This document shows, piece by piece, positions 12,668 through 38,351 of a stretch of 64,000 nt of DNA (position 1 is its first letter; each line of letters begins with the position of its first letter). The translations under genes and the position numbers were made by a program. The notes below the pieces were generated by a model. The model ran no database searches. It was given only the letters and a program-made list of their open reading frames with translations, and was not told the DNA's origin. The stretch comes from Azolla caroliniana (lineage: Eukaryota; Plantae; Polypodiophyta), in contig JBHGNT010000005.1 of NCBI GenBank assembly GCA_043228905.1, positions 10,106,001 to 10,170,000 of the forward strand. Direction: 5' to 3'.

Positions 12668-14954
12668 GTCCAGCCAAAATAGGAGCCGTTTGGTTGGACA
12701 GCCCTAGATCTGTGCAGCCCATTAGTGGTTCCATTCCCTCTAAGCAAGTTAGTGATGTGTTCGTAGCCCAAGTAATAGTTAGTACTAAAAGTACCCCTCC
12801 AGTACATGTCCTAGCACTCCTAGATTCCGGAGCTAACTCTTGCTTTATGGATAAGAAATTTGTTCACGCTCATAAGATATCCCTAAGAAAACTCCAGTGT
12901 CCAGCCTCTGTAGTAGTCATTGATGGACGTCCCATTGCTTCCGGAAATATCATAGAAGAGTCAGAGCCCATTAATATTGTCCTAGATAACTTAGCATGTG
13001 TAGTATCATTTAATATTATTAGTATCCCAGAACATCCTATAGTTTTAGGATTACCGTGGTTCGAGTTACATAACCCAGACAAAGATTGGAGAACAAGAGA
13101 AATCCGGTGTCGACAAACCCAAGGGTCAACTCAGAAGATGGCAACCAATTCGCTACGTCAGTTGCGTAAAGAAGGGCACAAGGAGGAAATGTTCCTCTTT
13201 GCAATATCAGTAAACCCCTCCAGCACCACTAAAGAAGAATCCACCGTTCAACTTCCCGAGAAGTATCGTCATTACGCTGATGTGTTCGATAAAGTACAAG
13301 CCAACACACTTCCTCATCATCGACCGTACGATTGCCCCATCGATTTACAACCGGGAAAAAAGCCGCCATGGGGACCGATCTACAATTTGTCACCAACCGA
13401 GCTGGAAGTCCTTCGGGCCTATATAGAGGAGAATTTGGAAAATGGTTTCATTCGGCATTTGAAATCTCCAGCCGGCGCGCCCATTTTCTTTGTCAAAAAA
13501 AAGATGGATCGCTTCGTCTCGTTGTAGATTACTGTGGCTTGAATAAGGTTACAATCAGGAATAGGTATGCTCTTCCCCTTATCTCAAGTCTTTTAGAACT
13601 GATCAATGGTGCTAGGTTCTTCACGAAGATCGACTTACGGGGAGCATATAACCTCGTACGGATCCGACCAGGAGACGAATGGAAGACCGCGTTTCGCACC
13701 AAATATGGGCACTTCGAGTATACGGTCATGCCGTTCGGCCTCACTAATGCGTCGGCAGTCTTCTAGCACATGGCTAATGATATATTCCGAGATCTATTGG
13801 ATGATTGTTTGATCATCTATTTGGATGATCTACTGGTTTATTCAAAGACCCAAGAAGAACATGATTCTCATGTACTATTAGTACTAAAACGAATTCGAGA
13901 ACATGGTCTATATGCAAAACTGGAAAAATGTAGTTTCGGGTGCAACCAAGTGGAATTTCTCGGCTACATCATTTCGTCAGAAGGCATCTCCATGGACCCA
14001 GCTAAGGTCAAAACGGTGGTAGAATGGCAAACTCCGCGTTCGGTGTGGGATGTGCAATGCTTCTTAGGCTTTGCCAATTTTTACCGAAAGTTCATACAAG
14101 ATTACTCAAAGATCGTTCTACCTCTCACACAACTTACCAGGAAGGGACAACCGTTCATCTGGTCTGAAGAAACGGACATGGCTTTCGAGAGTCTTAAAAA
14201 GGCATTTACATTGGCTCCAATTCTAGCTCATGTCGATCTGGAAAAACCATTCATTATCGAAGCTGACGCATCAAATTTTTCATTGGGGAGCATTCTGTCA
14301 CAACAAGGGAATGATGAGAAGCTACATCCTGTGGCTTTTCACTCACGCAAGTTTGACGCCGCCGAAATCAACTACGAAATTCATGATAAGGAGCTATTGG
14401 CAATAGTGGATTCTTTTATGCAATGGAGGCATTTTCTGGAGGGATCCTCTCATCCAGTCACCGTATTTAGTGACCACAAGAATCTTGCCTACTTTCAGGA
14501 TGCTCGTGTGTTGAATCGACGTCAAACTCGGTGGGCCCACTTCCTCACGCATTTCGACTTCAAAATTACATATTGTCCGGGGAGGCACCAAGGGAAGGCA
14601 GATGCATTATCACGGCGTTCGTATCTAGCACCCCGTCCCAGCGAGCTAGCTTTCGATAACCAAAAACAAGTCATCTTGGGACCGGCACGACTACAAGCAA
14701 CACAGATCTTTGACATGCCTATGTATTCCCGCGTTATCGATACCATACGTGAAGACTTGAAGACAGATGTGTTCGCCCAAGCTATACTAGCACAAATTGA
14801 TCCCTCTCGAGCGTCGTGTTCACAGTCGCAACCACCAGGTACGGACTATCGGCAATTCAAATACCATGATGGATTACTCTTCTTTAAAGAACTTTTGTAT
14901 GTTCCTAATGGTTCTTGCCGCCTTCGAGTAGTACAAAACTGTCATGACACATAT
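12655..14954 (+). pseudogene. pol: Pol 5' part (protease, RT, RNase H), disrupted
   Basis: LLDSGA protease, YLDDLL RT and ADAS..DHKNL RNase H motifs. Frameshift in the A run near 13495-13502, stop at 13764-13766, cut by the nested insertion at 14955. Confidence 0.92.
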
Positions 14955-15457
14955 TGTTGTTTGTCTGGCCGGACTAGCCTCAACACAGGTGTCTATCCGA
15001 CACTTCTCCAAAGGGGTGGTAAGGATTGGATGCTAGGTTAGACGCGTAAGATGATAACAATTAAGCACAGACGGTAAACAATACGAGATACAGATAAACA
15101 CGCAATAATTACTATTGTATTACTTCCGTCAAAACCCTTTACAAATCATCGGATCCTTTTATAGGCATCCGGCAAGGTTACAATCGGTGCGCTTAGGCAA
15201 CCGACATCCAAATCGGTCCGGATCCGGATCGGTACAACTGTACCGGATCTGTCCCTCCGAATAATAATTCTACTATTATTTACTTCCTATTATCCGATCC
15301 GACTCCGCCTTCCCACTTGTCCTTGCTCTTCTGACCGGCCAACACATGGCACGCCCGTGGGAAAGTGCCTTGCACTTCGAATCCACTCCCGACCTCAGTC
15401 TTCCTCCAAAATATCGAGCACACTCTGCTCGATGGTGTCAAGTGGTGCTTCTTCCTC

Positions 15458-18400
15458 CTATTCCTGTTCCTTGCCTGCCTGGTCTCCGACCTCCGGTTGG
15501 GTGGGTTGTTCCGTAAAAATTTGCTGCTCCAACTCTGCTTGATTCTGTGGTGCCGGTGCTTCCTCACCGCTTCGTCCGGGTTCTTCCTGTTCTCCCTCCG
15601 TTCCTGGCTCTGTTCTGTTACCAATGTCGCTTTCTCCGGTCTCGACTGGTCGACTCGATATGCCTCCTTCCTCTGCTCTGGTGTCTTCCGGTCTCAGCTC
15701 TTCTTCTTCTCCGGCATCGGTCTGCTCCTGCTCTTCTTCAAGTTCTTCTTCGGGTATTCCTCGTCGGGGTTGTTCGGTGTCGGTTGGTTCATCTTCAGCC
15801 GGTCGCTCTCCCTCACTTATCGTGATTGGCGTCGTTCTTCCCTTAGCTTCCTGTCGTAACCGGTCCTGCTCATATCTCTCCAACTCCAACTGAGTTGCGA
15901 GCTGCCCGTCATCCAACCTCTCTACCAACCCTCAGATTTCTTTGAGGTGTTCTTCTGCTAAAGTGTAGAAATCCTCCGACAATTCTTCCCGAATGGCGAC
16001 GATACTTTCTTCATCCATCTTGTAGAACTTGTCACCGGTCTTCCTCCGATTCTCGGCATCCGCTCGGAGTGTCTGCAGCTCGGCTGCCTGTTGTGACCAC
16101 TCCTTCCATAGCTTTTCCGTACTTTCTTTGATGCTTGCCTGAGCTCGGGTACTCCATCCTGACATGATGAGCTTGATCCGGTCAACCCCTGCCTTAGCAT
16201 GCGCATAAGCTTCCTGCTTTTCCTTCCTTGCCCGTTTTATAATGTCGGCCATTATCTGAGCTTGGGCCTCGTAATCCGCTTTCTGCTTTTCATAGGTACT
16301 TTGCAGTTTGTTGATCGTGAAGGTCGATTTTTCCTTTTCTTCATTCCTGATCTTGGTCAGGTCCAGCTTTTCCCACCTTAGCGCCTCTAATTCCTTCCTT
16401 CTCTCCGTCGCTTGGGCTATTTCCGCCGACAATGCTTCCTTGTTGGCACTGACCTCATCCATTGCCTTAGCCAGGTCTAATCGGGTCTCTTTGAGTTGTT
16501 CTTTCAGTTTCTCTATTTGCCGGTCGTAGTCTGCTGCCCGTTTCTTGTTGTCCGACTCGGCCTGCTTGTGATCTCGGTAGAGACGGTCGAAGTCCTCCGT
16601 CTTCTGCTTCAGGCGTCGGTTTGCCTGAGCTCTTAACCGATCATCCCGGTCCTTCTGTTGTCGGAGTTCTTCCTGCAGTCGTTCTATCTCTTGCTCGGCA
16701 TGTCGACGTAGTCGGTCCTTCTCCTTTTGCAGCTTCTCTTTTTCTTCTTGCAGTCGGTCATTAGCGGCTCGACCTTTCCGGAGGCCTTCTTCCATTTTTC
16801 GTCTGTCGTCCTCCACCGCTTTCCGCTACTCCCTTTCTCTTTCCCTTAATGCCTCCTAAGCTTTTAACTCCTCTCGTAAGGTTTCTATTATTTTTTCGGT
16901 CTCAGGGCCGGTTTGCAAGGCTACCGGTTCCGGTTCCGGTTCTGGTTGCTTCCTTGTTGTCCCGACCGGCTCGGTGACAACTTGTGCCTGTTGAATTCCT
17001 TCCCTTGCCTGCAACAGCTCCCCTTGCATTTCCTCGATCTGTGTTCGGAGCGCGACCAACTCCTGAGTTGTTGTATGCGTCAGCTCTTGCCTACACGTTT
17101 CTTCTTTTTCTAACTGGTCCGCTACTCCCGATAACTGCTCCGAAAGCCATCTCAGCCATTGTGGCTTTGTTCTTCCTGTGTCGGGGTGGCCTTGCTCACT
17201 TAACTCAGGCTGTTTTTCCGGCCTTTTCTCTGGCTCCGGCACTTGTTCCTTCTTCTTCTCTAGGATGACCAGTTCTCTGAAGTCCGGCCCAACCGGTGTC
17301 GGTGCTGCTTCCCTCGGTACGGGTTCCGGTGTTGTTTCCGCCTCGGCTACTAGAGATGGTCCTTGCGCCCTCTGCTGAGTTCTGTCCACTGGTGGAGCCG
17401 GTCCTTTCGCCCGTTTCTCCCGACCTTGTCTTGTTGGGAGTCTTACCAGTGGTTCGGATGAGTCTTCTGTTTCAACTTCCTCCTCCGGTGCGGTTACCAG
17501 ACGGACCTTTTGTATAAAGTCCTCTGGTTCCGGTTCCGGCCGTCGCAGCGTTATATGGATTGGTTTGCGCGCTACCGGTTCCTCCTCGGCCGATTTCCCT
17601 TTGCCTTTACCTGCCGGTTTTGCCTTTGTTGCCGGTTCCTATTGCTGTCGGGATGGTCCTTCCCCCTGTTGTTCTGCTTCTTGCTGGGTCCATCCGGGGG
17701 TGTGTTTCTCCAAGATCTGTCGGCGCTTTGTGACCTTTTTCGGCGTCGTCTCCTGCCGACCTCTTTTCTTTTGTGTGATGGGGAGCACCAGTGGGACTAA
17801 CACCGTTAGCCATTGTGCTATCCCGGCCCATGGCTTTTTTCCTTCCACAAGATTTTTGATGGCCTCCTTCAATCCTTCGGTTATGAAATGGAGCCAGTCT
17901 ATTTGTAAGCCTTCGTACGCTGCTATTAAGAACGCTGCCCCGTACTTGGCTATGGCCGAGGGACGGGGATTCACGAATCCGTATTCCATCATGGCGCGGG
18001 CCACTTCTCCGAACAGCAGGTTCTCTCCGCCCTGCGTTCGGTACGCCTTGCTGCTGATAGAGTACTCACCGAAATATTCAAACAGGATCTCACTTGAAGG
18101 GTTTTCGATTGTTTGAAGTCCTCCTGCTTTTATCCCCGTGAGCGCCTGCACCGCTCCTTCCGTGACTTCTGATATATCGATTGATGCTGCCGCCTGCTCT
18201 GGTTCTGCGTGTGGTGGAGCGTCGGCGATCCGCAGCAATCCTTTTAACCCGTTCTCCCTCATCCATTGGCGTGCCTCTTCCGACAGTACCATTGTTTCGA
18301 ATTCTTCTTCTGCTGCCTGTTGTTCGGGATCGCGCTGTGTGTGCTCTGTGCGTCGGATCGCTCTTCTGTGCTTCTGCGCCTGTATGTAGGAAAATTCGTA

Positions 18401-18493
18401 AAAAGTGAGCCCTTCGCAGGCCTGTGTCTTATATAGTGGCTTTTGCCTCGAGCCGCCCTTTTTCGTTTCCCGCGCATGTTCCTCTCCCGCCAT
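15458..18493 (-). pseudogene. extra ~1000-codon ORF (coiled-coil, Glu/Lys/Pro-rich) downstream of integrase
   Basis: ORFs 17639-18556, 16856-17389, 15932-16816 and 15458-15928 share one frame, separated by point stops. Probable start MAGEE at 18493. Confidence 0.75.
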
Positions 18494-18757
18494 AATTAGT
18501 ATGTCCTTCCTTGTTTGCCGCGTGTGAGTGCCCACGTTCCATGCTTTAAATAGCAAGTACGCGCACGTCCTTCTTTAATGCATGGCGCCTCTTCGTTGCA
18601 TGGTGGCGCTCCCACCTCTTGTGATCTCCCCATTATTACTATGATTCGCGTCGATTTTGCCCACGTCTTCTTCTTTTTTTTTCTTTTTTCTTTTTTTTTT
18701 TCTTCTTCTTTTTTTTTTTTTTCTTTTTTTTCTTTTCTTTTCTTTGTTTGGACCACG

Positions 18758-21700
18758 TCATTTGCTGGTCCCCCCCGATTTGTTCGGGTCGATTCGTGTG
18801 GATACCGGATCCTTCTGTCGGTTTTCCGGGATCGTCTTTGTCCATATCGGTGTCGGTTCTTCATCTTGCCGGATTTCCGGGTTTTGCTTGAACGGGTTTG
18901 CTGGCATATTTCCCTTATACGGCTTTAGCCGAAATCCATTTGCCCACTTGCCGATGACATCTCCAGACAACGTGCCGAGCTGATACGACCCGTTGTACTC
19001 CTTGGTGATCCAGAACGGTCCGGTCCATCGAAACCGCAACTTTCCCGGCATGTTCCCCATCCGTGTCTGGAATAGTAGCACCGGTTTCCCGACTTCGAAC
19101 TCCTTTTCATTGCCACGCCGGTGTCGGTCCACGAAAGCTTTTCTCCTCCTTTGCTCCAGTTCGAGTTGTAGTAAGCTGGCTATTCGGTTTTCTTCTAATT
19201 CCAACAACGTCGCCAGCCGGATTCGTTCGGACTCGTTCTCACTTAAGCGCTCCTTCACCTGAATCCGTAAGCTGGGGATCTGGAACTCTACCGGCATGAC
19301 CGCTTCTAAACCGAATGCTAGTCGGAACGGGGTTGTCCGGATGCTGGTTTTGTAGGTTGTTCGGTACGCCCATAGCGCGCTTTGCAATTTCGTATCCTAG
19401 TCGGTCCGGTTCTCGTTGACGATTTTTCGTAGGATGTTCTGCAGAGTTTTGTTCGTTGATTCCGCTAGTCCATTGGCTTGAGGGTAGTAGGGAGTACTCT
19501 TTTTATGTACCACCGCGTAAAATGACGTCAGGCTTTCTACTACCTGCCCGAGAAAATGTCCTCCTTGGTCACTTATAAGCTTGATCGGGCATCCATACCG
19601 GCACCATATGCACTCGTACAGAAACTTTGTCGTGGACGCGGCCGTGTTGTCCCGTAAGGCCTTTGCTTCTACCCATTTGGTGCAATAGTCGGTCGCCACT
19701 ATGACATACCGATTTCCGGTTCGCATTGCCGGTGGTTTGAAGGGACCGACAAAGTCCAACCCCCACTTTTGAAACGGTTCCAAGGGCAAGACCGGGTGGT
19801 GTGGCATCCGGGCCTGCTCTGTGGGTTGGCCCAGTCGTTGACACAAATCGCATTCTCTGCTATACTTCACGGCATCTTTTAGGGTGGTCGGCCACCACAG
19901 TCCGCTCTGCCATATTTTCCGAGCGGTTGCGTCGCCAGCATAATGCCCACCGGCAATTCCACAGTGGGCTTCCCTGAGGATTAAATCCTTCTCATCGCTC
20001 CGCACTGCTCGTCTCCAGATGCCATCTGCCCCCTTGTGATAGAGGGTGTCTCCAACCAAGCAGAAATGTCTACTTCTTACTGCTACCCTTTTCCTTTCAT
20101 CGTGGTTCATGTTCTCCGGGGGAACTCCGGTGCTCAGGAACTGATGCATCTCAGTTAGCCATGTGTCTTCATCGGCTACCGTTGTATCCGTTGCCGGTTT
20201 CGTCGTGATCCGGAACAATTCGGCGTCGGGAAACTCATCTTGGACGCCGTTCCCTGCTTCTCCGGATTCGAGTCTGCTTAGGTAGTCCGCTACCGCATAC
20301 TGCGCCCCGGGTCGGTGGAAAATGTCGAATTCAAATTCCTGTAGCAGCAGTGTCCACCGTACAATTTTTCCCGTCAGGGATGCCTTCGAGACCAGGTAGA
20401 GTAGTGCCGAATGGTCGACATGGAAGGAAAACTTCCTTCCGAGCAGATAGTGCCTGTACTTTGTGACACTATACACCATTCCCAATGCCTCGCGTTCCGT
20501 CGTAGAGTAATTCCGTTCGGCTTTTGAGAGTTTCCGGCTTGCGTAGTACACCGGTCGGTACCATTTCGGCTCCGTGAGTTGCATCAGAACGCTGCCGATT
20601 GCTACGTCCGACGCGTTGACGAAGACGTGAAAGCTTTTACTCCAATCCGGCGGTTGCACCACCGGAGCTTGCGACAGCATAACCTTCAACGCTTTGTAGG
20701 ATTCCTCCTCCGTCTCCACCCATAGGAAGGGTACCCTATGTACGGTGGTATGTAACGGTGTAGCGAAGTCTGCGAGGTGCCGTATCATCCGGCTATGCCA
20801 CCTTATTTGGCCCAGGAACCGGCTTAAAGCCTTTGCGTTACTTGGTGCTGGTGCCTCGAGAATCGCCTTGACTTTATTCGGATCTACCGCGATTCCTTCC
20901 TTACTCACCACGTGCCCTAGTAAGTTGCCGCTTGCCACTCCAAAGACGCACTTGGCCGGGTTCAAGCTCAATCGGTACTCGCGGCACTTCTCCAAGCACA
21001 GCCGGAGGTGATCGAGATGCTCTCCGTGCCGGCTGTAGACCGCGAAATCGTCAAGGAAGACCTGCATAAAACCGGGGATATATTCCCCGAAAATTTCCAT
21101 TATTATCCTTTGAAAGGTCACTGGAGCCGTCTTTAGTCCGAACATCATCACGACCGTGACGAACACTCCCCATTCCGTCACGAACGTTGTCTTCTCCTGG
21201 TCGGCCGGGTTCATTCGTATTTGGTTGTAGCCGCTAAATCCATCCAGGAAGCTGTAAACTTCGTGGCCGGCTACCGCATCTAACACCCCGTCCGTAAATG
21301 GTAGTGGAAACGCATCGGTCACTATTGCGGCATTTAGTTTTCGGTAGTCCACGCATACCCGGATTTTGCTGTTCTTTTTCGGGACCACCACTATCGGACT
21401 CAGCCAGGTTGCCTGCTTGACCGGTCGGATAAATCCGACCCGGAGGAGCTTATCAATTTCCTCCTTCACCTTTGCCGCATAATTCGGATTCATCCGGTAC
21501 CTGCGTTGAGCGATCGGTTTCGCGTCCGTACATAGGTGAATTTGGTGCTGATAGAGCTGGGGGTCCAGCCCTCGCATGTCTTCGTACGACCACGCGAACA
21601 CATCCTTGAAGTCTGTTAATAATGCTACCATTGCCTTCTTTTCTTCCTTCGGCAATTCCTTTGCAACATTTACCGGTCGGGGCTTGTCTGCTGTGCCGAG

Positions 21701-24500
21701 GTCCACCTCCTCGAGTTGGGATGCTTTTACCCTCTGGGATATCGTCATTTCCATCTCTAGGGATTCCTGCGCTTGTCGCAGTTCCCGGATCGCCGCTTGG
21801 TCCGGTTCATCCGGCGTCGTAATGTACGGTTCTACTGCCGCCGTGATATCCACCTCAAATAGTGGGACGATTCGTGGGTGTTCCTCGAGGTACCGCTCGA
21901 CTTCCTCGTCCAGTAATCCCTCCAACATGTTAATGCTTTCCGCATACAATGGAGTTGCTTCCTTACTGGTGATCACCCGTGGTTGCGTCGTTACTCGTAC
22001 CTTTGTTTTCCCTCGCCAGAATGTGATCATGTTCTTTTGCCAGCTCTGCTTGATATGCGTTGTTCGCAGCCATGGTCGTCCTAGCAGTAGGGGGTACGCG
22101 CCTTGTACATTCAACTGCAGCACCACGGCCGATATCCGGAATACGTGGCCTCCGATCGTTACTTCCAAATCCCGGATAAGCCCGGTCGGTCGGACTGAGC
22201 TGGTATCTGCCATGCGTAACCAGAAGGGGCATGGTTCCCATTCCCGGATGCCCAGGTCGTTGCATGTCTGTTGGCTGATGACATTTACCCCGGAGCCTCC
22301 GTCAATAATCGTTCCAGCAATTTCCTTTCCTTTCACGATTGCCGTGATCGTCGGGCTACTTGTATCGACCACCGCTGGTCCTTCCTCCGGGTTGGAGAAG
22401 AATGCCGGTGCTGGCGTCCGCTTCGGTTTGCTGACGGATGCCTGTAGGTCTGTCGTAAACCGTGGCACTAACTGTAGTAGTCGTGCTAACGGCAGCACGA
22501 TTTGACAGTCTTGTAGCGCTTGCCACGTCGGGTTTTCTCCTGGCTGTATGATTTCTTCGTCTTTTGGCATATTTTGGTCTCTTACTTCTGCCGCATTCTG
22601 TTCATTGGCCTCCTTGATCCATTGTGCCGCTTGTTTTCTGATTGCCTCCTGGGCTTCCCACTCGGCGGTCTTTCCCTTTGACCGGGTTGTGACATGCTGT
22701 ACTTCTGTTATTTCGGCTGTAACCATGTTGACTTCCGGCTGCTTGTGATTGGTTTTGCTTGGGCATTGGTTACTATAGTGGCCTTCCTTACAGCAGTAAT
22801 AACAATACACCTTGTGACTGTTGCTCGTTTCTCCTTTGTCCCCGGTTTGGAGGGTGGGTATGCTCCGGCGGTCGTCTTCGGTTTTTCGGTTATCCGGTAC
22901 CGATACCGGGTTGTCATTCCTCGCTGCCTCCCGACGTTCCTCTCTTCGGAAAAATCCACGCTTCTGATTCCGTCGGAAATTTCGGTTCCCTTGTCGCCTC
23001 TCTTCTCTGCGTCGGTCGTATTCCGGGGATTCGTCTCGGTCGTACCGGTCCCGGGGGTAGCTATCTCTGCATCTCTCCTCTCGGTCATAGTTGTCGTGTC
23101 TTCTATCAGCGTATCTGTTACCGCGTTCGCGTTGGTAGCGGTCATCTCTCCGGAATCGATCCTCGTCCGGGTTCTGATTGCGCGGTTCTATGTGTCGAAC
23201 CGGTGCTGCCTGCCGATTTAACAGGTTATATTCGCATTGGTCCGTTGTATGGGCTCGAGAGTTGCAGATCATACATTGTGTCCGCAGGGTGCAGTCTACT
23301 GTTGAGTGCCCCGAATTTAGGCATGTTGTACATTGTAAGGCCTGTCGAAACCTCAGGTCTTCCTCCTTTGGGAGTGCCCGGTGTAACATCCCCATCGACA
23401 AGAAGGGGCTAGTCTTGTCCATTTCTAAAACCAAGTGCTGGTTTGGAAATCAAGGACTCCGCACATTGTTCGAAGTGGCTCTTTTAGTGCGGCCAAAAAG
23501 ACTGCTTTGGCTTCGTCTTCGGGTGGTGCTCTTGTCAGTTGGTTGTGCAGGGTCTGAAACCGAATGATGAATTGTGGCACAGTCTCGTTCTCTTCCTGCC
23601 GGGTGGTGTAGAACTGCCCGACCAATTCCCTTTGCTCAAATTGTCTGTGAAAAAGCCTGAGGAATCTGGCCTTCAAGACATCGAATGTGGCAAAGCTGCC
23701 TGGTAAGTGCTTTGCGTGCCATCGGGCCGCCGGTCCTTCTAAGGTTATGCCGAATTCGGCGACTTTGGATCGTTCGGCTTCGGGCTCCGTCAGTCTTTGG
23801 GAGACATGGTTGGCTTCCCATGTTTGGAGGAATGCGTACACGTGTGCCTCCGCGTCGGCCTCATCCCGGTACTTTGGGTATGGGTACGGCATCGTGTCGT
23901 CCAACTGACTCTCCTGTTTCCTCCGCTCTCTGTCCGCTGTTGGCGTTGGTGTGAGAACCTTTGGTTCCTCCGCGGGTGTTGCCGGTGTCCGGTCCTTTGG
24001 TTCCTCCGCGGGTGTTGTCGGTATCCGCTCCTTCGGTTCCTTCGCGGTTGTTGTCGGTATCCGGTCAGCCTCCCTCGGCGATTGCCGGTCACCGAATTCC
24101 AGGGTTATTTCTTCCTCTGGCGCCGGTGTTACTGAGTCTTCCGACCCCTCGTCCTCCCGGTTGTTTGGTGTGTCTGGCTGCTTTTATACCGGGACGCAAC
24201 GCTTCCATCGCTTTCCGACTCCGCCTCAAGTGTTGCAAATGCTTCCGAGTCCCCGTCGCCCCCGGCGAGCGTCTGCAGTATCGTTTCCGCCTCTTGCAGG
24301 CTTGTTATGCTGCTGCCTTCGTCGGGGATTTGCAGAACCCGGAACTGCAGTGCTTCTTCTGCGACTCTCCGAAGAGTTTTGGAGAATGACCGATCCCGCC
24401 GGATCTCGTCGACGGCTTGCTGCAGGTCTTCCCGTCGTTGCTCGCGTTCGGTGTATCGTCTCCCTCGTTCGGTGATGTGGTCGTCGTTTGGTCTAGACAT
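18758..24500 (-). pseudogene. gag-pol: Gag-Pol polyprotein of the nested element (capsid, zinc knuckles, PR, RT, RH, INT)
   Basis: ORFs 24129-24584, 23425-23904, 19397-23434 and 18758-19387; motifs IIDGGSG, FLDDF, WGLDFVGP, YYPQANGLAE, WTGPF. Frameshifts in gag and an in-frame TAG at 19397. Confidence 0.92.
23963..24065. repeat. 36-bp tandem repeat x3 in gag 5' region
   Basis: GGTTCCTCCGCGGGTGTTGYCGGTRTCCG... recurs three times. Confidence 0.8.
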
Positions 24501-24931
24501 CCATCCCCCGGTTGTCCTCTGCACTTTGCAGGAATCGTGGTCGCCAAAATAGTGTTGTCTGTCTGGCCGAACTAGCCTCAACACAGGTGTCTATCCGACA
24601 CTTCTCCAAAGGGGTGGTAAGGATTGGATGCTAGGTTAGACGCGTAAGATGATTACAATTAAGCACAGACGGTAAACAATACGAGATACAGATAAACACG
24701 CAATAATTACTATTGTATTACTTCCGTCAAAACCCTTTACAAATCATCGGATCCTTTTATAGGCATCCGGCAAGGTTACAATCGGTGCGCTTAGGCAACC
24801 GACATCCGGATCAGTACAACTGTACCGGATCCGTCCCTCCGAATAATAATTCTACTATTATTTACTTCCTATTATCCGATCCGACTCCGCCTTCCCACTT
24901 GTCCTTGCTCTTCTGACCGGCCAACACATAT

Positions 24932-26227
24932 ACAGCTGGGCATTTTGGTAGTACTAAAACATTACATTTAGTACAACGAACATTCTGGTGGCCCTGTATG
25001 CGACAATTTGTCGAGGATTTTGTTCGGACTTGTGATACATGTTGCAGAGCGAAAATGCCAAGGCATCATCCATATGGTTTATTAGAACCATTACCAATTC
25101 CAAGCAAGCCGTGGCAATCCATTGCTCTAGACTTCATCACAGATCTTCCAGTCTCTAAGGGGTTCAATGCGATTCTAATGGTGGTCGATCGATTTACGAA
25201 GATGGCTCATTTCTTGCCATGTACTAAGGAGATCTCCAGTGAAGACACTGCCGAAATTGTCATGCGTGAAGTATGTCGGCATCATGGACTTCCCGATAGT
25301 ATCATCAGCGACCGTGGACCCCAGTTCGTGTCAAAATTCTGGAAGCACCTTTTTAACATGCTCAAGGTCACTTGTAACCTCTCCTCCGGCTACCACCCAC
25401 AAACCGACGGCCAAGCTGAACGAACAAATCAAACGTTGGAGCAGTATCTGCGGTGCTTTCTCAACTATCATCAAGATGACTGGGCAGATATTCTCCACTT
25501 CGCCGAATTTGCCTATAACAACTCTATCCACGCATCCACTAAAGTTATGCCATTTTATGCTTATATGGGATGTCACCCCCGGTGGAGTGTACTTGAAACC
25601 CCAGAGGTGTCCACAAATCCGTGCGCGGAGGATCGTTTGGAGCAGTTATGCAAGATACAGGCGGATTTATCTACTCATCTCCAGCAAGCTCAACAAACAC
25701 ACAAGGTCTACGCGGATCGTCATCAACTTCCATCCAGTTTTAATATTGGAGATCGGGTGTGGCTGCTACGACGACACATCAAGACTACTCGTCCATGTGA
25801 GAAGTTAGATTATCGGCGATTAGGTCCTTTCCGTATTATTGGACAGATTAATGATGTCGCTTTTCGTCTCAATCTACCTCCTCAACTTCGGATACATCCG
25901 ATGTTTCATAGTTCTCTCCTCGAACCCTACCACGAGAGCACCATCCCAGGACGTCTTATCCAACCTCCACCCCCGATCGAACTTGAAGATGGGCCGGAGT
26001 ACGAGGTTGCCGCTATCCTTGATTCCAAGATTGTTCGCAACAAGCTCTACTATCTAGTCGATTGGCTAGGCTATAGCCCCAGCGAACGTACTTGGGAACC
26101 GATCGAGAATGTGACCAATGCTCGTGCTCTTCTTGAAGACTTCCATCATCAATATCCACACAAACCAGGTCCTCAATCCAAGACGACTCGTGACACTCAT
26201 CGTTTTAAAGGGGAGATAGTGTCATGA
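24932..26227 (+). pseudogene. pol: Pol 3' part (integrase plus chromodomain)
   Basis: Continues the CHDTY/TAGHFG zinc finger after the nested element; DFITDLP, SDRGPQF, YHPQTDGQAER, GPF and chromodomain YEVAAILD..YLVDWLGY..TWEP. Confidence 0.92.
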
Positions 26228-26677
26228 TATGGCAAGACTCGAACCCATGACCTTAGGTTATATGGGTCGAGCTCTTGACCATTAGATCATCTATTGTAAT
26301 ACGTAAAATATTATTTTCATTTACATTTTATTATAGGAAATTAGCATATATTCCAGATTTCTCTCGAACATTCTAGAAGCTTCAGGATTACTCTTGAAAA
26401 CAGTATAAAAGAGGGCACTAGGCATTATTTTGAACCAAATTGGTTCAACGCCAGTCTTAAGCCTTTTAGCCACCATTGTATATTCTCTTCATATAATACA
26501 TATCTTTCTTATCATCACTCTCTCTCTCTCTCTCTCTCAATCTCTCTCTCTCTCAATCTCTCTCTTTCTCTCTGTCTCGCTCACTTCTTCCTTCTCTTGA
26601 AGAAGTTCCACACCTCTCATAGTACTAATCCTTCGTTTAGTACTAATTCCTTCTCTGTCTCGATACTGTTCATGACA

Positions 26678-29600
26678 GCAACAGTCATAACCTCGTTCCT
26701 GTATAGTAAAACATTCCATGGTCCAAATCCATCCCAGTAGAAAATACATGAACTTATTCTTTTAAATCATTGTTCAATTACATGCGTTTCTTGACTTAAT
26801 TGCATTCTAATGCGGCGCACAATTCAAGTCACTACAATATATCTTTGTATCTTGTAATGAACACGACATGAATCGAACCTGCAACCTTTTCCTCTTGATC
26901 CAAACACACAGGCATTGCATGGTGGATCCCGCTTGTATGCATAAATTGATAGCATAATCTTGTTCGTTAGTACCAAAACATTGCATGCTCCAATGGCATC
27001 GCATTGGAAAACGCATGTAGTTATTCCTCCTATCCATTGTTCGATTGCTTATATTTCTTGACTTAATATAGTTAGAATGCATCCCACAACTCAACTCAGA
27101 ACATGAGATCTTTGTGTCTTAAAATGACTTTGATATGCATAGAACATGCAACTTTATAATTTGGAATCAAAAGACTTGCCATTGTGCTAGGCACGTCGCT
27201 TATGTAAGTTTTTTTGTGATAGTTTTGTCCCCGAGTGCTAAAATATTTTATTATCCAAAATAATTACATTAGAACAAAACATCCAATTATTCGTGTAATC
27301 AAAATAGTGAAAGTGCACGTTATGCTTGTTTAAATTTTACAAAACTGTGACCGCAATTCCGATCACAACACCAGATCTTGCCATGTAGAAATGAACCCGA
27401 CATCAATCGAACACGAAACCTATTCAGCTGAAGTCAAACGCGCGACCACAGCGCGACATATCCCGCTTCTGGTTTGATTTCATAACCTCGTCGTCAAGTA
27501 GGTAAACATTGTAAAACAAATCATCCACCTATTTCTCTAATCAATTGCACGAACTAATTGATTTAATTATACCCCACAACTCCGAAAATTCTAGTTATAA
27601 CACTAGATCTATGTTGTTGAAATGAACTAGACGTGAATCGAACAACACAATATCTTCGCATGTAGAAATGAACCCGACATGAATCGAACACGCAACCTTC
27701 TGATCTGGAGTACAACACGCTACCATTGCGCCACGGATCCCGCTTGTGGTTTGATATCATAACCTCGTCCTCAAGTAGGTAAACATTGTAAAAACTATCA
27801 TCCACCTATTCCTCAAATCAATTACACGAACTAATTGATTTAATTGTACTCCACAACGGCCGAAAATTCTAGTCATAACACTAGATCTATGTAGCTTGAA
27901 ATGAAGTAGGCGTGAATCGAACATGCAACCTTTTTATCTCAAGTCAAACACACATGCATTGCACTGTGGATCCCTATAGGACATGTTTTGAGGTCAAAAC
28001 TCATCTGTACAAACCAAACCATTGCATACTCCAAAACCATCACATTGGAAAAGAACATAAACTTATTCCTCCAATCCATTCTTTGATTCCATGTCCTAGT
28101 CTACTTAATTTTTCTCCAATAACGTTGAGAATTCAAATTACAACACAATACCGATGCATCTTGAAATAACCTCAACATGAATTGGACATGCAACGGTTAT
28201 AACCTCGTTTCTGTATAGTAAAACATTGCATGCTCCAAATCCATCCCACTAGAAAAAACATGAACTTATTCTTGTAATTCATTGTTTAATTACATACGTT
28301 TTGTGACCTCATTGCATTTGAATGGGGCCCACAATTCAAATCACAACAATAGATCTTTGTATCTTGTAATGAACACGACATAAATCAAACAGGCAACCTT
28401 TTTATCTAGTGTCAAACACACAAGCATTGCATTGTGGATCCCGCTTGTGTGCATAAGTTGATTGCATAATCCTGTCCATTAGTACCAAAACATTGGATGC
28501 TCCATTGGCATCGCATTGGAAAACCCATGCAGTAATTCCTCTTATCCATAGTTAGATTGCTTATATTTCTTGACTTAATATAGTTCAAATGGATCCCACA
28601 ACTCACCATAGTTAGATTGCTTATATTTCTTGACTTAATATAGTTCAAATGGATCCCACAACTCAACTGACAACATGAGATCTTTGTGTTTTAAACTGAC
28701 ACTGATGGGAATAGAACATGCAACCTTCTAATTTGGACTCAAAAGCCTTGCTATTGCGCTAGGCACTTCGCTTATATAAGTTTTTTTTGTGATAGTGTTG
28801 TCCCCGAGTGCCAAAATATTTTATTCTCCAAAAAAATCATATTACAACTAAACATCCAATTATTCGTGTAATCAACATTGTGAAAGTGCACGTTAAATTT
28901 ACAAAAAAATTGGCCACAATTCCATAACAACCCGATAACAACACAAGATCTTCACATGTAGAAATGAACCCGACTTGAATCGATCACGCAACTTTTTGAT
29001 CTGGAGTCAGACATGCTACCATTGCGCCACGGATGCCGCTTGTGGTTTGATGTCATAACCTCGTCGTCAAGTAGGTAAACATTGTAAAACAAATCATCCA
29101 CCTATTCCTCTAATCAATTGCACGAACTAATTCATTTTATTGTATTCCACAACAGCCAAAAATTCTAGTCATAACACTAGATCTATGTAGCTTGAAATGA
29201 ACTAGACGTGAATCGAACATGCAGCCTTTTTATCTCTAGTCAAACACACATGCATTGCAGCGTGGATCCCTATTTAACATGGTTTGAGGTTAAATCTTAT
29301 CCATATAAACACAAGTCACAACACAATACCTATGCATCCTAAAATAACCTCAACATGAATTGGACATGCAACAGTCATAACCTTGTTCCTGTATAGTGAA
29401 ACATTGCATGGTCCAAATCCATCCCACTAGAAAAAACATGAACTTATTCTTTTAATTCATTGTTCAATTGCATGCGTTTCATGACTTAAGTGCATTCGAA
29501 TGCGGCCCACAATTCAAGTCACAACAATAGATTTTTGTATCCTATAATGAACACAACATGAATAGAACATGCAACCTTTTTATCTAGAGTCTGACACACA

Positions 29601-30843: not shown

Positions 30844-31169
30844 TGTCAGAACCAAGGATAAAAGATAGAGTGATGGAAGAAGGATAGAGAAGAATGTATG
30901 TATAAGATAGAGAAAGAAAGAGAATGGATACAAGATATGTAATGAGAGCTAAAGACTGGTGTTGATTCGAATTGATTTGAGAATACATGTATGCGCTTAT
31001 TTATAGGTTCCTATAGAATAGCTTAGAAATTTCTAGAGTTTTTACAATAATCAATGTAATACAAGAAGTAGCTTTTATTGTTTCTATAACAATAAGCTAT
31101 CTTAATGGTTGAGGTTTTCAAGTATGAATTACAAGGTTCGAGGTTCAAGTCCGAGTGACGCCATAATGG

Positions 31170-34100
31170 TCATGTGTTCATGACACTATCCCTCCTTCGA
31201 GAATGCCGAGTGGAAGTCGGCGTTAACATTGTTGGGTTGGGCTTGTTTGGATAGTGACGATGGAAGTCGTTGACCAGAGCTTCAGCATTACAAACGTTAT
31301 CGATGGGTTCCCAAGTGCGATCACTCGGAGGATAACCAAGCCAATCAACTAGATAATAAAGCTTATTGCGCACAATCTTAGAATCGAGAATAGCAGCTAC
31401 CTCGTATTCGGGGCCGTCCACAAGTTGTACAGAAGGCGGTGGTGGCACGACACGATTTGGAATTAAAGAGGTGTGGCAAGGTTTCAAAAGTGAGCTATGA
31501 AAGACAGGGTGAAGTCGCATATGTGCAGGAAGGTTAAGACGAAATGTTGCATCATTAATCTGCGCCGTGATGACAAAAGGACCTAAGCGTTGATAGTCAA
31601 GCTTAGCACACGGTCGGGTAGTCTTGATGTGACGACGAAGCAACCATACACGGTCACCAACCTTAAACGGAGACTTAAGACGATGTCGATCGGCATTGGT
31701 CTTATGGTGTGCTTGCGCTTTCTGAAGATGTGACGATAACTCGAACTGGATTTGTTGTAGTCGGTGGAGGTGATGCGCCGCACTAGGGTTTCGTGACACC
31801 TCGGGAAGATCCAGTATACACCATCGAGGGTGGTTGCCGGTGTAGGCAAAGAAAGGTGTAACTTTGGTAGAAGAGTGGACCGTGTTGTTGTATGCAAACT
31901 CGGCAAGATGTAAAATTTTACTCCAATCATCTTGTTGATAACTAATGAAACATCGAAGATATTGCTCGAGCGTTTGATTTGTGCGCTCTGTTTGTCCGTC
32001 AGTTTGTGGATGATAAGCTGAAGAGAGTTTGCAAGAGATTTTGAGGCCTGCCCATAGGTGCTTCCAAAAGAGTGAGATAAATTGAGGACCTCGATCGCTA
32101 ATAATATCATTCGGGAGACCATGATGGCGAAACACTTCACGCATAATGAGATCTGCAGTTTCTTCACTATTGATGGTCTTTACACATGGTACAAAATGTG
32201 CCATCTTGGTGAACCGATCCACTACTGTTAAAATAGTATCAAAGCCTTTGGAAGGTGGCAGATCCGTAATGAAATCCATAGAAATAGACTGCCATGGCTT
32301 GTTGGGAGGGGGTAATGGTTGTAGTAAGCCATAAGGGTGATGCCGGGGTATTTTGGCGCGACAGCAGGTGTCACAAGTGCGAACATAATCTTCGACAAAT
32401 TTTTGCAAGTGAGGCCACCAAAATGAATGTTTCACCAGCTCAATGGTCTTGGAAATACCAAAATGTCCAGCCATGGGGGCATCATGACAATGTTCCAACA
32501 CTTGAAGTCGGGGTGATCCGTCGGGGACGTAAAGGAGATTCTTGTAGAAGAGTAAACCATCTTGCCACTTGAAGTCCTGATAATGTTGAGATGACCCTGG
32601 CAATGTGGAGCAAGATGGACGACTTGAACCACAGTGGGCTAAGACATCCTTAGCAAAATCATCCGAATGAAGTTGTTGCCGAATAGTGTCAAGAAGGGTA
32701 GAATCAAGTGGTGTGGCATAAATTGTTGTTACCTGTAGCTTTGATGGCCCGAGGAGAGTTTGCTTTTGATTGTCAAAGGCCGGATCTCCAGGTCGAAGTG
32801 CTAGATACGAACGCCAAGACAGAGCATCTGCTTTCCCTTGTTGTTTTCCGGGGCGAAAAATGATCTTGAAATCGAAACGCGTTAGAAATTGGGCCCACCG
32901 AGCTTGTCGTCTATTTAATACTCGAGTTGTTTGAAAATATGTGAGATTTTTGTGATCACTATAAATGATAATCTGATGAGGTGATCCTTCTAGAAAATGA
33001 CGCCATTGCTCGAATGAGTCGACCACAGCTAGTAACTCCTTGTCATGCACCTCATAGTTTATCTCCGAAACAGTAAACTTTCTCGAGTGAAACGCGACTA
33101 GATGTATCTGCCCGTCCTCGCCTGGTTGCGATAGGATACTCCCCAATGCAAAGTCTGATGCATCCGCCTCAATAGTAAATGGCTCTTCAGGATCAATATG
33201 TGCTAAGATGGGTGCTGATGTGAATGCCTCTTTCAGCTGCGTAAAAGCCTTGTCTGCTTCGATACTCCAAAAAAATGCTTGATTTTTCTTGGTGAGTCGA
33301 GTAAGGGGGGCAACACAATGCTTGAATAATTATGTATGAATTTGCGATAGAAGTTCGCAAATCCGAGGAAACACTGGACATCCCGAACTGAGCATGGGGG
33401 TTTCCATTCCAATATTGTTTGGACTTTTGCCGGGTCCATGAAAACACCCTGGGATGAAATAGTGTATCCCAAAAATTCGACTTGTTTGCAATCAAAACTG
33501 CATTTCTCAAGTTTGGCGTAAAGACCATACTTCCTTAGGCGTTCAAGTACTTGCCGCACATGTATATCATGCTCCCCTTGTGTTTTAGAGTAAATCAATA
33601 GATCATCTAGGTAGATGATTAGAAAAATATCCAAGAAATCCCGGAAGATGTCATTTGCCATATGTTGGAATACGGCAGGTGCATTTGTGAGCCCAAAAGG
33701 CATGATTGTATACTCGAAATGACCATACCGAGTACGAAATGTTGTTTTCCACTCATCTCCTGGCCGAATTCGAACAAGATTATATGCACCCCTTAGATCA
33801 ATTTTGGTAAAATGCTTTGCCCCACCAATGCGTTCTAAGAGATTGGAGATTAAAGGTAAAGCATACCTATTCCTTATGGTGACTTTATTTAAGCCTCGAT
33901 AGTCCACGACCAAACGAAGGGAGCCGTCCTTTTTCTTCACAAAAAAGATAGGAGCACCAGCTGGAGACTTTGAATATCGAATAAACCCATGTGCAAGATT
34001 TTCCTCGATGTATTCTCGAAGAACCTCAAGCTCAGTGGGTGATAAATTGTCAATCGGACCCCACGGAGGCTCTTTTCCTGGTTGGAGATCAATAGGACAG

Positions 34101-34840
34101 TCGTACGGCCGATGCTTTGGAAGAACACTAGCTTTGACTTTGTCGAAAACATCAGCATAGTCTTGATATTTTTTGGGAATTTGGATGTCTGAATTCCCTT
34201 GAGTGACACTAGAAGGTGTCACTGATACTGCAAATAAGAAAAGGTCCTCCTTGCCTCCCACTTGGTGCAATTGTTGCAATGTGATGGCTGAAATTTTATG
34301 AGAAGGATATCGTCCATCGGTAGAACTATATACTTTGGGAGGATAATCCCGAGTTCGATCCTTGACAATGATATTTTCTGCTAAAGGGCACCTAATTTCT
34401 CGCTTCCTCCAATCGATTCTAGGGTTATGTAGCTCGAACCATGGCAAACCGAGGACAATTGGATGCTCAGGACTACGGATTATGTTAAAGGAAACTACAC
34501 ATCCTAAATCACCCAAGAGTATGTGTATTGGCTCAGACTCTTCAAATATCTTCCCAGAAGCTATGGGGCGTCCATCAATCACTACTACGGAAACTGGACA
34601 AGGAAGTTTATGCAAGGATATTTGGTGTTTTTGGGCAAAATCTCTATCCATGAAACAAGAATTGGCTCCAGTATCTAAGAGGGCTTGGACTTGAAGTTGA
34701 CAACTGGGTGTCCTAACCTGTACTAGGGCTGAGAAGACTCTACTAACATGCTTGGAAGAAATGGAACCCACACTAGGTTGTACATATCTAGGGTTGTCCA
34801 ACCAAATGGCTCCTATTTTGGCCGGACTTATTCGTTTGAC
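31170..34840 (-). pseudogene. pol: Pol (PR-RT-RH-INT-chromodomain) with one frameshift
   Basis: ORFs 33233-34801 and 31170-33146; LLDTGA, YLDDLL, DFITDLP and chromodomain motifs. Frameshift at the homopolymer run 33305-33310. Confidence 0.93.
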
Positions 34841-35991
34841 TCCTCTTCTAATTGGCTTAGGACTTCAAATTTATTGGACAAGGGTGGATTATTCATAATA
34901 TTAGATTCACTAACTACTTCTAAAATGTTGGACTCATTTTTATTGTCATAGTGAATTTGATTTACCTGACGTCTCGGCCTACGGGAGCAATGAATGGCTA
35001 TATGTCCTGGACCTCCACAATATAAGCACAGATGGTTTGCTCGACGACGTTGCTTCTCTTCGTCTGACAACGGTCCTCGTCGTTGAGTCATATCGATCTC
35101 CATGGGTGTAGGACTATCCATTGGGACTGGACTACGTGTTTGCCTTGGAGTTGGAGCAAGGCTATACATTTGCCTTGGGGATGATTGCGCCGTTACTGAT
35201 GCATAAGTTGGTGTGAATCTAGATCTTGTTATTTGTTGTTGTCGCTCACATCGACGCTCAAAAAGGCGATTATCACACCGTATTGCTCGACTAATAGCTT
35301 CTGTAAGTGACCTTGGATCCTCGGGGAAGGTAAGAAGTAAGTCTTTGACATCACTACGAAGGCCTGAACGGAATTGCTCCATTAGGGCTTGTTCATCCCA
35401 AGGAATATCGCTTGTGATGAGACGAAAATTGGCAGCATATGTTGAAGCTGGTTGATCACCTTGACGAAGTGTACGAATCTTGTTGATAGCTGTTCTCGCC
35501 CCATCAGTATCTCCGAAACAAGCCTTAAATTCCTTGATAAATTCCTCGAAATTATTCAGTAGAGGAGAATTGGTCTCTAGCAATGGAGCAAACCACGACA
35601 ACGCTATGCCAGTCAATAAAGTGCCCACTAGCCCGACTCGTGATGCATCTGTTGGATAACGTGCGGGATGCATTTGAATCACCAACCGTACTTGATTCAA
35701 AAAACCTCGGAAATGCGCCCTCGACCCATCAAATTTAGCTGGGAGGCTAATTTTGGGCTCCTTGATAAGTCCCTGACCTTCAACCCTTTGTTGTTGTAAC
35801 ACGACGATTGTCGACTCTAACTGTTGCACTCGTCGCGTGAACTCCTCTTGTTGTTGTTGCTTCTCTATAGTAACCTTTTGTAGATCCCCAAGTAGACGTT
35901 GATTCTCTACTTCAAGAGATGCGAACTTGGATTTAAGGTTCTCCATTTCTGCAACAAGGGTGAGATATTCTTCTGAGTTAATGGCAGCCAT
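34828..35991 (-). CDS. gag: Gag (starts MAAINSEEY)
   Basis: Homologous to Gag 11507-12667; CLYCGGPGHIAIHC zinc knuckle. Confidence 0.93.
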   Translation of the reverse strand: MAAINSEEYLTLVAEMENLKSKFASLEVENQRLLGDLQKVTIEKQQQQEEFTRRVQQLESTIVVLQQQRVEGQGLIKEPKISLPAKFDGSRAHFRGFLNQVRLVIQMHPARYPTDASRVGLVGTLLTGIALSWFAPLLETNSPLLNNFEEFIKEFKACFGDTDGARTAINKIRTLRQGDQPASTYAANFRLITSDIPWDEQALMEQFRSGLRSDVKDLLLTFPEDPRSLTEAISRAIRCDNRLFERRCERQQQITRSRFTPTYASVTAQSSPRQMYSLAPTPRQTRSPVPMDSPTPMEIDMTQRRGPLSDEEKQRRRANHLCLYCGGPGHIAIHCSRRPRRQVNQIHYDNKNESNILEVVSESNIMNNPPLSNKFEVLSQLEEESNE

Positions 35992-36016
35992 GGTTTCAGG
36001 ATGGTTACAAAGGAGG

Positions 36017-36062
<46 letters not shown>

Positions 36063-36589
36063 GAATCAAACTGTCAGAACCAAGGATAAAAGATAGAGTG
36101 ATGGAAGAAGGATAGAGAAGAATGTATGTATAAGATAGAGAAAGAAAGAGAATGGATACAAGATATGTAATGAGAGCTAAAGACTGGTGTTGATTCGAAT
36201 TGATTTGAGAATACATGTATGCGCTTATTTATAGGTTCCTATAGAATAGCTTAGAGATTTCTAGAGTTTTTACAATAATCAATGTAATACAAGAAGTAGC
36301 TTTTATTGTTTCATATAACAATAAGCTATCTTAATGGTTGAGGTTTTCAAGTATGAATTACAAGGTTCGAGGTTCAAGTCCGAGTGACGCCATAATGGTC
36401 ATGTGTTCATGACACCAGTGGTCCCACTGAACTTTCTAGAGCCGACAACATTCTTCTTGACAAAGTTCAAAAAGACGATTATCACACTGAATGGATTGGG
36501 AGATTACCTGAGAGAATAATGTGGGCTCTAGAAAGTTTAAGAGAAGAATCCTTACATCGTTTCAGAGGCCATAACGGAAATGGTCGCAT

Positions 36590-36939
36590 TTCTTGGTCTC
36601 CATTGGACAACCTTACCAACTAAGCTACATCCATCTATGCATCCTTATATTAAATCATACTTGATGTATTGTAGATTGAACACTAGAAGTTTCCTAGCTT
36701 GCATATATATGTATTCTCTATTCCTAGCTTGCATGCATCCTCATGCATTCTCTATTTCTAGCTTGCATGCATACCTCCACCTTCTACTATAAATACTCAG
36801 GTGCACCTTGATTCTAATCAAGGTGAACAACACCAGTTACTGAACCATAAGTTGAGTTCTTGTTCTCTTTCTCTTGTCTATTCTCTCTCTTAGTACTTAG
36901 TCTCGTCTTGCTTCAGCTCTATTCTACTTGTCTGTGACA
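36590..36939 (+). mobile_element. 5'-truncated LTR fragment, related to 38277-38704
   Basis: TATAAATA near 36788, ends TGTGACA, and is similar in inverted orientation to 38277-38645. Confidence 0.7.
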
Positions 36940-37455
36940 CATCCCTTGGTTGGAGTCCTTGACACCACAAATTTGGCAAGTAGTGCTTTGGATTGTGAGA
37001 GGGGATCAATCAAACCCATCCCTCCTCTCAATTTGGGTGATGTGAGAACATGCCACACCACCTTGGCCCGAGATGCATGACTTTCCTTACCAAGCCAAAT
37101 TTGTAATTGTGCTCCAGTCGTTGAATCTTATGTATACTTCCTTTAGAGATCATCCAACATGATAGGTTGTACCATGTTGTTGCTAGTAATACCTTATTCA
37201 CCACCATAATGCGTCTTGCCGGTGAGAGTTTTCTCAAGTTCCAATTTAACAACTTTTGTTGAATGGAGTGAATGATTGGTGCAATTATCATCTTAGGAGG
37301 AATGTTGAAGCCAATTTGGAAGCCCAAATAGATGGTGCTCACTCCCTACTTGATCCACATGAAACAGGGATGTAGGCACTCGATTGGATGTGATTCATCG
37401 GCGAGCCATATTGCATAGGATTTATGCCAATTGATCATGACATTTGATCTCTCAC

Positions 37456-38089
37456 TGTTACCGTACGAGATGTAAGGGTGATTGATAAGTGTGATAAGTG
37501 AGGGTAAAAGATGTAATGTGTTGATATGTATGTGTAATGTTATACGATTATGAGTGTGAATGTAAGTGTGAGTGTGGTTGATACAAAGAGGTGTGAGTGG
37601 GTGACTAGGTGTGAATGCCAAGGGGGCTTGCACCCTTGTGTATCTACCCTTTTGTACCTATTTAACCCCTTATGGGGAATGAATGAATACAAGGATCATT
37701 TCTCTCTCTCTCTCTTTGACTTCTCTCTCTCTCTCTCCCCCTCCCCTTAACGTTGAACCCCCTTGGGAGGGGGGTGGAGCCATTCTAGGCACCACCCCCC
37801 ACCCCGTAATGCTTCTCAATGCACATCCCGCAATCATCATCAATCATCATCATTATCATAAATATTAAACCTAACCCTAAAAACTAGGTACAAAAGGGTA
37901 GATACACAAGGGTGCAAGCCCCCTTGGCATTCACACCTAGTCACTCACTCACACCTCTTTGTATCAATCACACTCACACTTACATTCAAACTCATAATCG
38001 TATAACATTACACATACATATCAATACATTACATTTTTCACCCTCACTTATCACACTTATCAATCACCCATACATCTCGTACGGTAACA
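37456..38089. mobile_element. 634-bp fold-back element with 205-bp inverted arms
   Basis: Arms 37456-37660 and 37885-38089 are reverse complements with few mismatches; termini TGTTAC..GTAACA; TSD CTCAC. Confidence 0.9.
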
Positions 38090-38276
38090 CTCACAAAACA
38101 AGGATAGTCCATTTCTAGCGTCTTTAGATTCTCCTCGTCCTTGCATGTAGATTATGGTATAATCCGCAAATTCTATATCTATTTGGCAATGGTGAGAGTG
38201 CAGCACAAGAAGACCATGTAGGTTTAGATGTCGCACGTTGATAAAGCTAGAGAGTGCTTCTACATATAATAGAAAT

Positions 38277-38304
38277 TTTCATGAACAAGTAGGCAAGGCT
38301 AAAT

Positions 38305-38351
<47 letters not shown>

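Follow-up and report, generated by a model that had tools for sequence, protein, structure and literature searches.

Starting the plus strand from a polypurine tract (PPT) is taken as the rule in LTR retrotransposons and in retroviruses (PMC5371799, PMC6317226). Canonical Ty3, Ty1 and retroviruses carry direct LTRs, a TSD, a 5' tRNA site and a priming signal abutting the 3' LTR, and in Ty1 and Ty3 the tRNA site is bipartite, pairing with the acceptor stem and the T-arm of the tRNA that primes the minus strand (PMC5371799). LTR elements can change primer, as in the self-priming of Tf1 and the half-tRNA priming of copia and Ty5, but these exceptions are described for the minus strand only, with a PPT kept for the plus strand (PMC5371799; 10.1101/2022.12.06.519325). 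Here we examine an element in a window of 64,000 nucleotides from Azolla caroliniana (the whole stretch of DNA that was analysed). It shares the canonical features and has a bipartite tRNA site, but the signal beside its 3' LTR is a pyrimidine-mixed copy of a tRNA end rather than an RNase H-resistant purine tract, and, in contrast to the Ty1 and Ty3 arrangement described in PMC5371799, the bipartite site lies on the cDNA strand, at the predicted plus-strand start.

The element is a non-chromovirus Ty3/gypsy retrotransposon of 9,972 nt (about 9.97 kb; 14955-24926). It sits inside the integrase gene of a Tcn1-like chromovirus (10995-26678, plus strand) that has an ordinary PPT. Because CATAT flanks it on both sides (14950-14954 and 24927-24931), both element ends are fixed, including the LTR edge at 15344. 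The two direct LTRs (14955-15344, 390 nt, and 24553-24926, 374 nt, both on the minus strand) have TG..CA ends and align with 369 matches, 5 mismatches and one 16-nt indel. The only TATA word of the LTR, TATAAAA near 15160 in the left copy, is on the minus strand; the right LTR is therefore the 5' LTR. All genes face the same way, in the order GAG-PR-RT-RH-INT, in agreement with the sequence-only reading of a minus-strand element with TATA and gag-pol. Gag (Retrotrans_gag, 23425-24183) and pol (18758-23449; PR-RT-RH-IN, no aRH, no chromodomain) are in different frames in this copy, and a stop at 19397-19399 interrupts the integrase. Most of the interval between pol and the 3' LTR is occupied by an extra ORF (15458-18292, minus strand), which is broken by stops here and open over 1030-1161 aa in three related loci (L021:71-3397, L008:1408-4890 and L012:167-3256). 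In the open copies its N-terminal domain is conserved and its C-terminus is coiled-coil-like. None of the three matches a Pfam family above the cut-off, and the Atlas leads, to Transposase_32 and ATHILA clusters, are weak (0.84, below the 0.9 mark).

Among described groups, Athila (classed as non-chromovirus, OTA) shares with this element the non-chromovirus character, the lack of an aRH, a 5-bp TSD, the 7-23 kb size range (PMC6317226) and, separating pol from the 3' LTR, a long stretch that holds an extra ORF (PMC6317226, PMC2844528); the PF03078 ATHILA ORF-1 family is reported in 16% of Athila (PMC6317226). However, Athila PBSs are for tRNA-Asp, Asn or Ala, mostly Asp (72%; PMC6317226), whereas the PBS here is of the Arg type and is unlike the Asp PBS given in PMC2844528. 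The Athila element FIDEL also has a PPT (PMC2844528), in contrast to the window element's group, which has no terminal PPT and has LTRs of 374-500 nt. Tat, Ogre and Retand share a tRNA-Arg PBS (Ogre 89%, TatIII 64%, Retand 30%), a 5-bp TSD and extra 3' ORFs, but are defined by an extra aRH and have one forward PBS plus a PPT (PMC6317226, PMC11963269); the pol of the window element has no PF13456 match, nor does that of its sister element L127. Phygy and Selgy are likewise non-seed-plant non-chromoviruses without an aRH (PMC6317226). Phygy differs in its 4-bp NCGN TSD, tRNA-Trp PBS and lack of an extra ORF, and Selgy in its 4-bp TSD, tRNA-Ala PBS, lack of an extra ORF and length of about 5 kb, against a 5-bp CATAT TSD, a tRNA-Arg PBS and an extra ORF here (PMC6317226). 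The forward PBS does not complement the tRNA-Trp-like copies found in the window, which end differently from its complement. The element is thus not a Tat element, and it does not fit Phygy or Selgy, which the sequence-only reading had named as relatives. The integrase C-terminal frame has no Pfam chromodomain match, while both Tcn1-like neighbours have the domain; Tcn1 itself is described from moss and club-moss (PMC6317226). Outside seed plants, the nearest named proteins belong to Riccia, Marchantia and Adiantum (41-48%). A single clade of the RT-RH with eight seed-plant or JGI rows, which we take to be Athila-like and which were named as a group after the tree had been seen, is rejected (p-AU 0.004). 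The element is best left in an unplaced non-chromovirus clade of non-seed plants.

A tRNA-complementary site at the 3' LTR junction

The PPT that usually, though not as a strictly defining feature, stands directly before the 3' LTR is missing from the window element: over the 40 nt that precede this LTR no purine run exceeds 4, compared with 10 and 10 in the two Tcn1-like elements of the window. The earlier statement that the element has no PPT holds at the LTR junction but not for the interior, where an A-rich, 80-nt purine run follows pol (18745-18666, minus strand). Purine runs also follow pol in L021 (34 and 20 nt), whereas L008 and L066 have none at that place and no run of at least 14 purines anywhere between pol and the extra ORF.

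In place of the PPT is a CCA-ending site on the plus strand, separated from the TSD-fixed LTR edge at 15344 by a 2-nt spacer (15345-15346), as the sequence-only reading had it. That reading recognized box A (15347-15362, 16 nt, TGGCACGCCCGTGGGA), which is complementary to nt 76-60 of tRNA-Arg(UCU) save for a single tRNA base that bulges out, but made the site too short, for it continues to 15386. Box A is followed by a hairpin (15363-15377) lying opposite tRNA nt 59/58, with a 4-bp core (15365-15368 with 15372-15375) and a 3-nt loop, and then by box B (15377-15386, 10 nt), which complements tRNA nt 58-49, that is, the T-loop and the 5' T-stem. The two boxes together complement tRNA nt 76-49, and the whole reverse site is antisense to gag-pol. 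By itself the first 11-mer is not significant: the window has a single copy of it when up to 1 mismatch is allowed, against 0.24 expected by chance, and 22 of 100 shuffles reach that number. The case rests on the position of the site, the longer split match and its conservation.

The tRNA used for comparison is a complete tRNA-Arg(UCU) with CCA found in a related locus (L006:1190-1265; ARAGORN, and 71 bits in Rfam). In the window, box A matches the complement of this tRNA over 11 nt and, beyond a 1-nt bulge, over a further 5 nt; box B, past the hairpin, matches it at 9 of 10 nt; the window copy has T at 15382 and most relatives have C. The earlier reading was right about the tRNA-Arg(UCU) complement, CCA included, but had an A where the L006 tRNA has G, so that the match is split by the bulge. 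The L006 tRNA occupies the place expected for the forward PBS of that family, and the letter after it is the first of the family's spacer. It is likely an RT copy of a mature primer in a deleted element whose LTR would lie beyond the contig; accidental copying of whole tRNA primers by RT has a precedent (PMC12220202).

The forward PBS, TGGCGACCAC (24537-24546, minus strand), follows the 5' LTR at 6 nt, with coordinates and spacing as first reported, and the same 10 nt are common to 9 loci. The end of human tRNA-Arg(UCG) matches it over 12 nt (10.1101/2021.02.06.430044), and the same human motif is labelled R or W in PMC4724089. On this comparison with the human tRNA end, host tRNA-Arg(UCG) is thus the likely forward primer. 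A pattern scan for tRNA-Arg(UCG) found none in the viral contigs; one viral record has a tRNA-Arg(UCU) with a similar end, which is uninformative on host tRNAs. The searched supplements of PMC11658184, PMC5389709 and PMC11700998 held no plant tRNA-Arg 3' end. A small hairpin follows the forward PBS at about 24518-24531 (minus strand) in the window copy and in L066.

Conservation of the reverse site

Contigs from 4 sequencing runs of 3 organisms were aligned to 15300-15460 at 80% likeness. Across 15340-15381, the sole difference listed at a level of at least 1% in the 4 runs is the loop base 15369, with none listed in box A. At 15382, most of the depth in organism C carries the letter that gives a perfect box B. 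Contig depth, which is not a copy number, peaks at the reverse site, and among the rows listed the loose ends of aligned contigs join other LTR ends and interiors to the same core.

We also searched the metagenome with the pattern AACA, 0-6 nt, box A, which gave at least 123 matches in at least 121 loci (about 200 estimated). Two loci, L010 and L075, are long contigs without hairpin or box B and were left out as chance matches. The 119 remaining loci come from one accession series and are not mutually independent, and loci too short for a given test were left out of its count. Box A is part of the search pattern, so its constancy in these loci is by construction, and sisters bearing a PPT could not appear among them; the checks unbiased by the motif are the contig alignments over 15300-15460 and L127 alone. 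Among the matches listed, the spacer is 2 nt in 95 of 123, 4 nt in 13, 5 nt in 14 and 1 nt in 1, and outer LTR copies confirm that the 5-nt spacer is real. The expected conservation at a fixed distance from the LTR therefore stands for the site, which recurs across many LTR families, but not for the distance, which is 2, 4 or 5 nt.

Features outside the search pattern are also kept. The hairpin core has all four Watson-Crick pairs in 90 of the 114 loci listed and three in a further 14, and box B is within 1 edit in 81 and within 2 edits in 108 of 114, compared with 0 of 446 control windows within 2 edits. In 109 of the 115 loci listed, no purine run longer than 4 is present in the last 40 nt; in L101, a purine microsatellite replaces hairpin and box B. 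All 4 hairpin pairs show double changes, and the 29 cells with such changes are reached in 0 of 500 shuffles, a count inflated by relatedness within the set of 47 sequences (the window plus 46 hand-picked from 88 distinct sites). The LTR ends beside the site fall into 35 clusters among 106 at 22 of 30 identity (loci listed).

The orientation of the site is likewise consistent. Among the 121 loci listed, 45 have a coding match on the inner side and 76 have none; 44 of the 45 matches are antisense to the reverse site (43 of them the extra ORF and 1 a nested gag), and the exception, L076, has a 35-aa RT piece in the opposite direction 1.9 kb from the site. None of the loci listed has gag in sense behind the reverse site, as it would be behind an ordinary PBS. 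Contigs that cross the LTR, from collapsed or tandem copies, show a forward PBS of the TGGCGACCAC type in 9 loci and of the TGGCACGCCC type in 11, with 10-13 nt and a spacer of 2-7 nt across loci, while the reverse site is unchanged. Six units of about 1.8-2.5 kb without a gag-pol match (L013, L022, L032, L045, L060 and L073) keep both sites, which fits what would be expected of cis signals required for copying. Some short non-autonomous units are arranged in tandem LTR-interior arrays. In the viral contigs, a protein search found no relative, and the motif matches there were unrelated in 4 of 4 cases.

A further element, L127, was found without the motif, by a protein-alignment scan of genome contigs that returned 11 loci. 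It is a whole element with 62% identity to the window element over RT-IN, and in the tree it is sister to the window's group within a 100/99 clade. Its LTRs are 1.64 kb long and 93% identical, its TSD is not clean, and its forward PBS, 2 nt from the LTR, is of a third type. Before its 3' LTR are an 8-bp hairpin and, at a 2-nt spacer, a CCA-ending site that agrees with the end of the L006 tRNA at 13/15 positions (2 mismatches); the probability of this match by chance is about 4e-4, allowing 9 spacers and 50 tRNAs. The purine run at the 3' LTR is 3 or less, so that L127 has no PPT there, and its box B is weak. The junction falls in a 325-aa stop-to-stop frame. The L127 contig (G001:C10) is from a bacterial MAG and joins bacterial sugar-transport genes to plant-type retrotransposon DNA; it is likely a chimeric assembly.

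No LTR pair surrounds the match in the other 10 protein-scan loci, which therefore supplied no outgroup with a PPT. The sequence-only reading had set out three grounds for dropping its proposal, namely PPT-bearing sisters, variability of the motif and the lack of a tRNA with the matching end; none was encountered in the material examined. In this lineage of active elements, a real, conserved and structured tRNA site takes the place of a terminal PPT.

Proposed tRNA priming of the plus strand and its alternatives

What is observed is where the site lies and how it is oriented, its split complementarity, the covariation of its hairpin, its presence in short derivatives and the lack of a terminal PPT; to this we add a proposal. 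We think it probable that tRNA-Arg(UCU) anneals to the minus-strand cDNA at the reverse site and primes the plus strand. Minus-strand synthesis would begin as usual, from tRNA-Arg at the forward PBS. After transfer, RT would copy U3 and the reverse site, and RNase H would remove the RNA, leaving single-stranded cDNA that could fold the 4-bp hairpin. The tRNA would then pair through nt 76-60 with box A, with one bulge, and through nt 58-49 with box B, forming a three-way junction at about A58, a position that is usually methylated in tRNAs. The tRNA 3' OH would thereby come to lie 2 nt from the edge of U3 (4-5 nt in certain families), at the position expected for the end of a PPT, and RT could extend it into plus-strand strong-stop DNA. 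Finally, the tRNA would be removed and the reverse site re-copied from the element, which would explain why neither the bulge nor the hairpin has been brought into line with the tRNA. On this proposal we hold it reasonably likely that a non-seed-plant Ty3/gypsy clade without a PPT uses host tRNAs to start both strands, the second through a bipartite docking site on minus-strand cDNA.

Cofolding yields the predicted junction, which in 78 of 88 sites becomes weaker when box B is shuffled (RNA parameters, without modifications). The cofold gap between strands (-23 vs -8 kcal/mol) follows from complementarity and is not support. The T-loop letters of box B make sense as partners for a tRNA rather than as a tRNA mimic, since the hairpin would break the loop of such a mimic. 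Among the points against a tRNA primer, the second tRNA cannot bind the sense RNA, yet must enter the particle, and the internal purine run of the window copy and L021 could itself prime the plus strand.

The main alternative, which we hold unlikely, is that the element's own tRNA-like sense RNA survives RNase H and, cut after CCA, serves as a non-purine plus-strand primer. Position and 2-nt spacer are as for a PPT, a second packaged tRNA is unnecessary, and the T-stem halves of the sense RNA can pair around the hairpin, with 80.9% of cells paired; self-priming RTs of Neurospora retroplasmids moreover recognise a CCA-ending tRNA-like end (PMC12220202). However, the hairpin is inserted in the T-loop and there is no adjacent 5' acceptor strand, so the tRNA fold is not rebuilt, and the T-stem pairs have no double change and shift register between families. 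For the T-loop letters of box B the sense RNA offers no partner, whereas on the antisense strand they pair with the tRNA, and HIV RT prefers the PPT to non-PPT primers (PMC2665208). Changes tolerated by the tRNA outnumber opposite transitions by 47 to 9, in a box B made up of 8 C/A and 2 T/G, with one inherited change making up 25 of the 47; sequence alone, these wobble counts included, does not separate a tRNA primer from such a self-primer.

We regard as improbable a role in which the site binds tRNAs or their fragments for packaging, dimerisation, 5'-3' pairing, an antisense-RNA decoy or a Pol III promoter, while the plus strand starts elsewhere, for example at an internal purine run. The runs of 80 nt in the window copy and of 34 and 20 nt in L021 would suit it, as would A-rich runs in short derivatives, and the sense site could pair with the TGGCACGCCC-type forward PBS. 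Yet L008 and L066 have no candidate run, and priming from within the element would leave the end of U3 undefined (PMC5371799). The reverse site does not covary with the forward PBS and stays constant while the PBS type switches, and in the 9 loci, the window element and L127 the forward PBS shares only TGGC with it; this independence argues against 5'-3' self-pairing, which we rejected. A Pol III promoter was likewise rejected, the B-box GTTCRANNC being absent from 114 of the 114 sites listed.

It is highly improbable that an antisense transcript, or either strand, is the packaged genome and the reverse site an ordinary PBS. The classic 2-nt geometry and a tRNA match longer than that of the forward PBS would agree with it, but the window element and 11 of 49 loci have TATA on the gene strand, compared with 2 of 49 that have it on the opposite one, and every gene is on the TATA strand, which also leaves the earlier suggestion of replication from either strand unsupported. 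Since the other end lacks a PPT as well (purine run 5), two tRNA primers would still be needed. Just as remote is the view that the site is a functionless leftover from a copying accident or a chimera. RT is known to copy a whole tRNA primer accidentally, and the full tRNA with CCA in L006 fits such an event. Against this, compensatory changes conserve the site while LTRs and interiors diverge, it is kept in short derivatives and in L127, and the family, which inserted recently (5 LTR mismatches), lacks a terminal PPT; conservation and covariation appear to have largely refuted a relic already.

In open-licence papers and bioRxiv, a search that mostly did not cover subscription journals, we found no description of tRNA-primed plus strands or of the present lineage, as the earlier reading had supposed. 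If a tRNA does prime the plus strand, this would be a new priming route for LTR retroelements: RT could use a tRNA annealed to a DNA template to begin the plus strand, and integrase would nevertheless receive correct ends, and the element would work as a Ty3/gypsy element with an altered plus-strand signal. Even with a tRNA-like, non-purine self-primer, the priming would be unusual. Such elements would likely be missed or flipped by annotation software that relies on a PPT for detection or on the PBS for orientation.

Surroundings of the element

The second Tcn1-like chromovirus of the window (30844-36415, minus strand), which served as a control, has LTRs that are 99.4% identical and an ordinary PPT. 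A tandem array of 0.9-1.3 kb units, at 800-10740 and 27360-29240, is split by the Tcn1-like element that hosts the nested insertion; its units carry tRNA-Trp(CCA)-like copies, of which ARAGORN called 9, several of them degenerate. Nested inverted repeats at 36602-38645 (220 nt at 94% and 117 nt at 88%) are possibly a foldback or MITE-like element. An open frame at 41925-42983 (plus strand) encodes a triose-phosphate transporter family domain.
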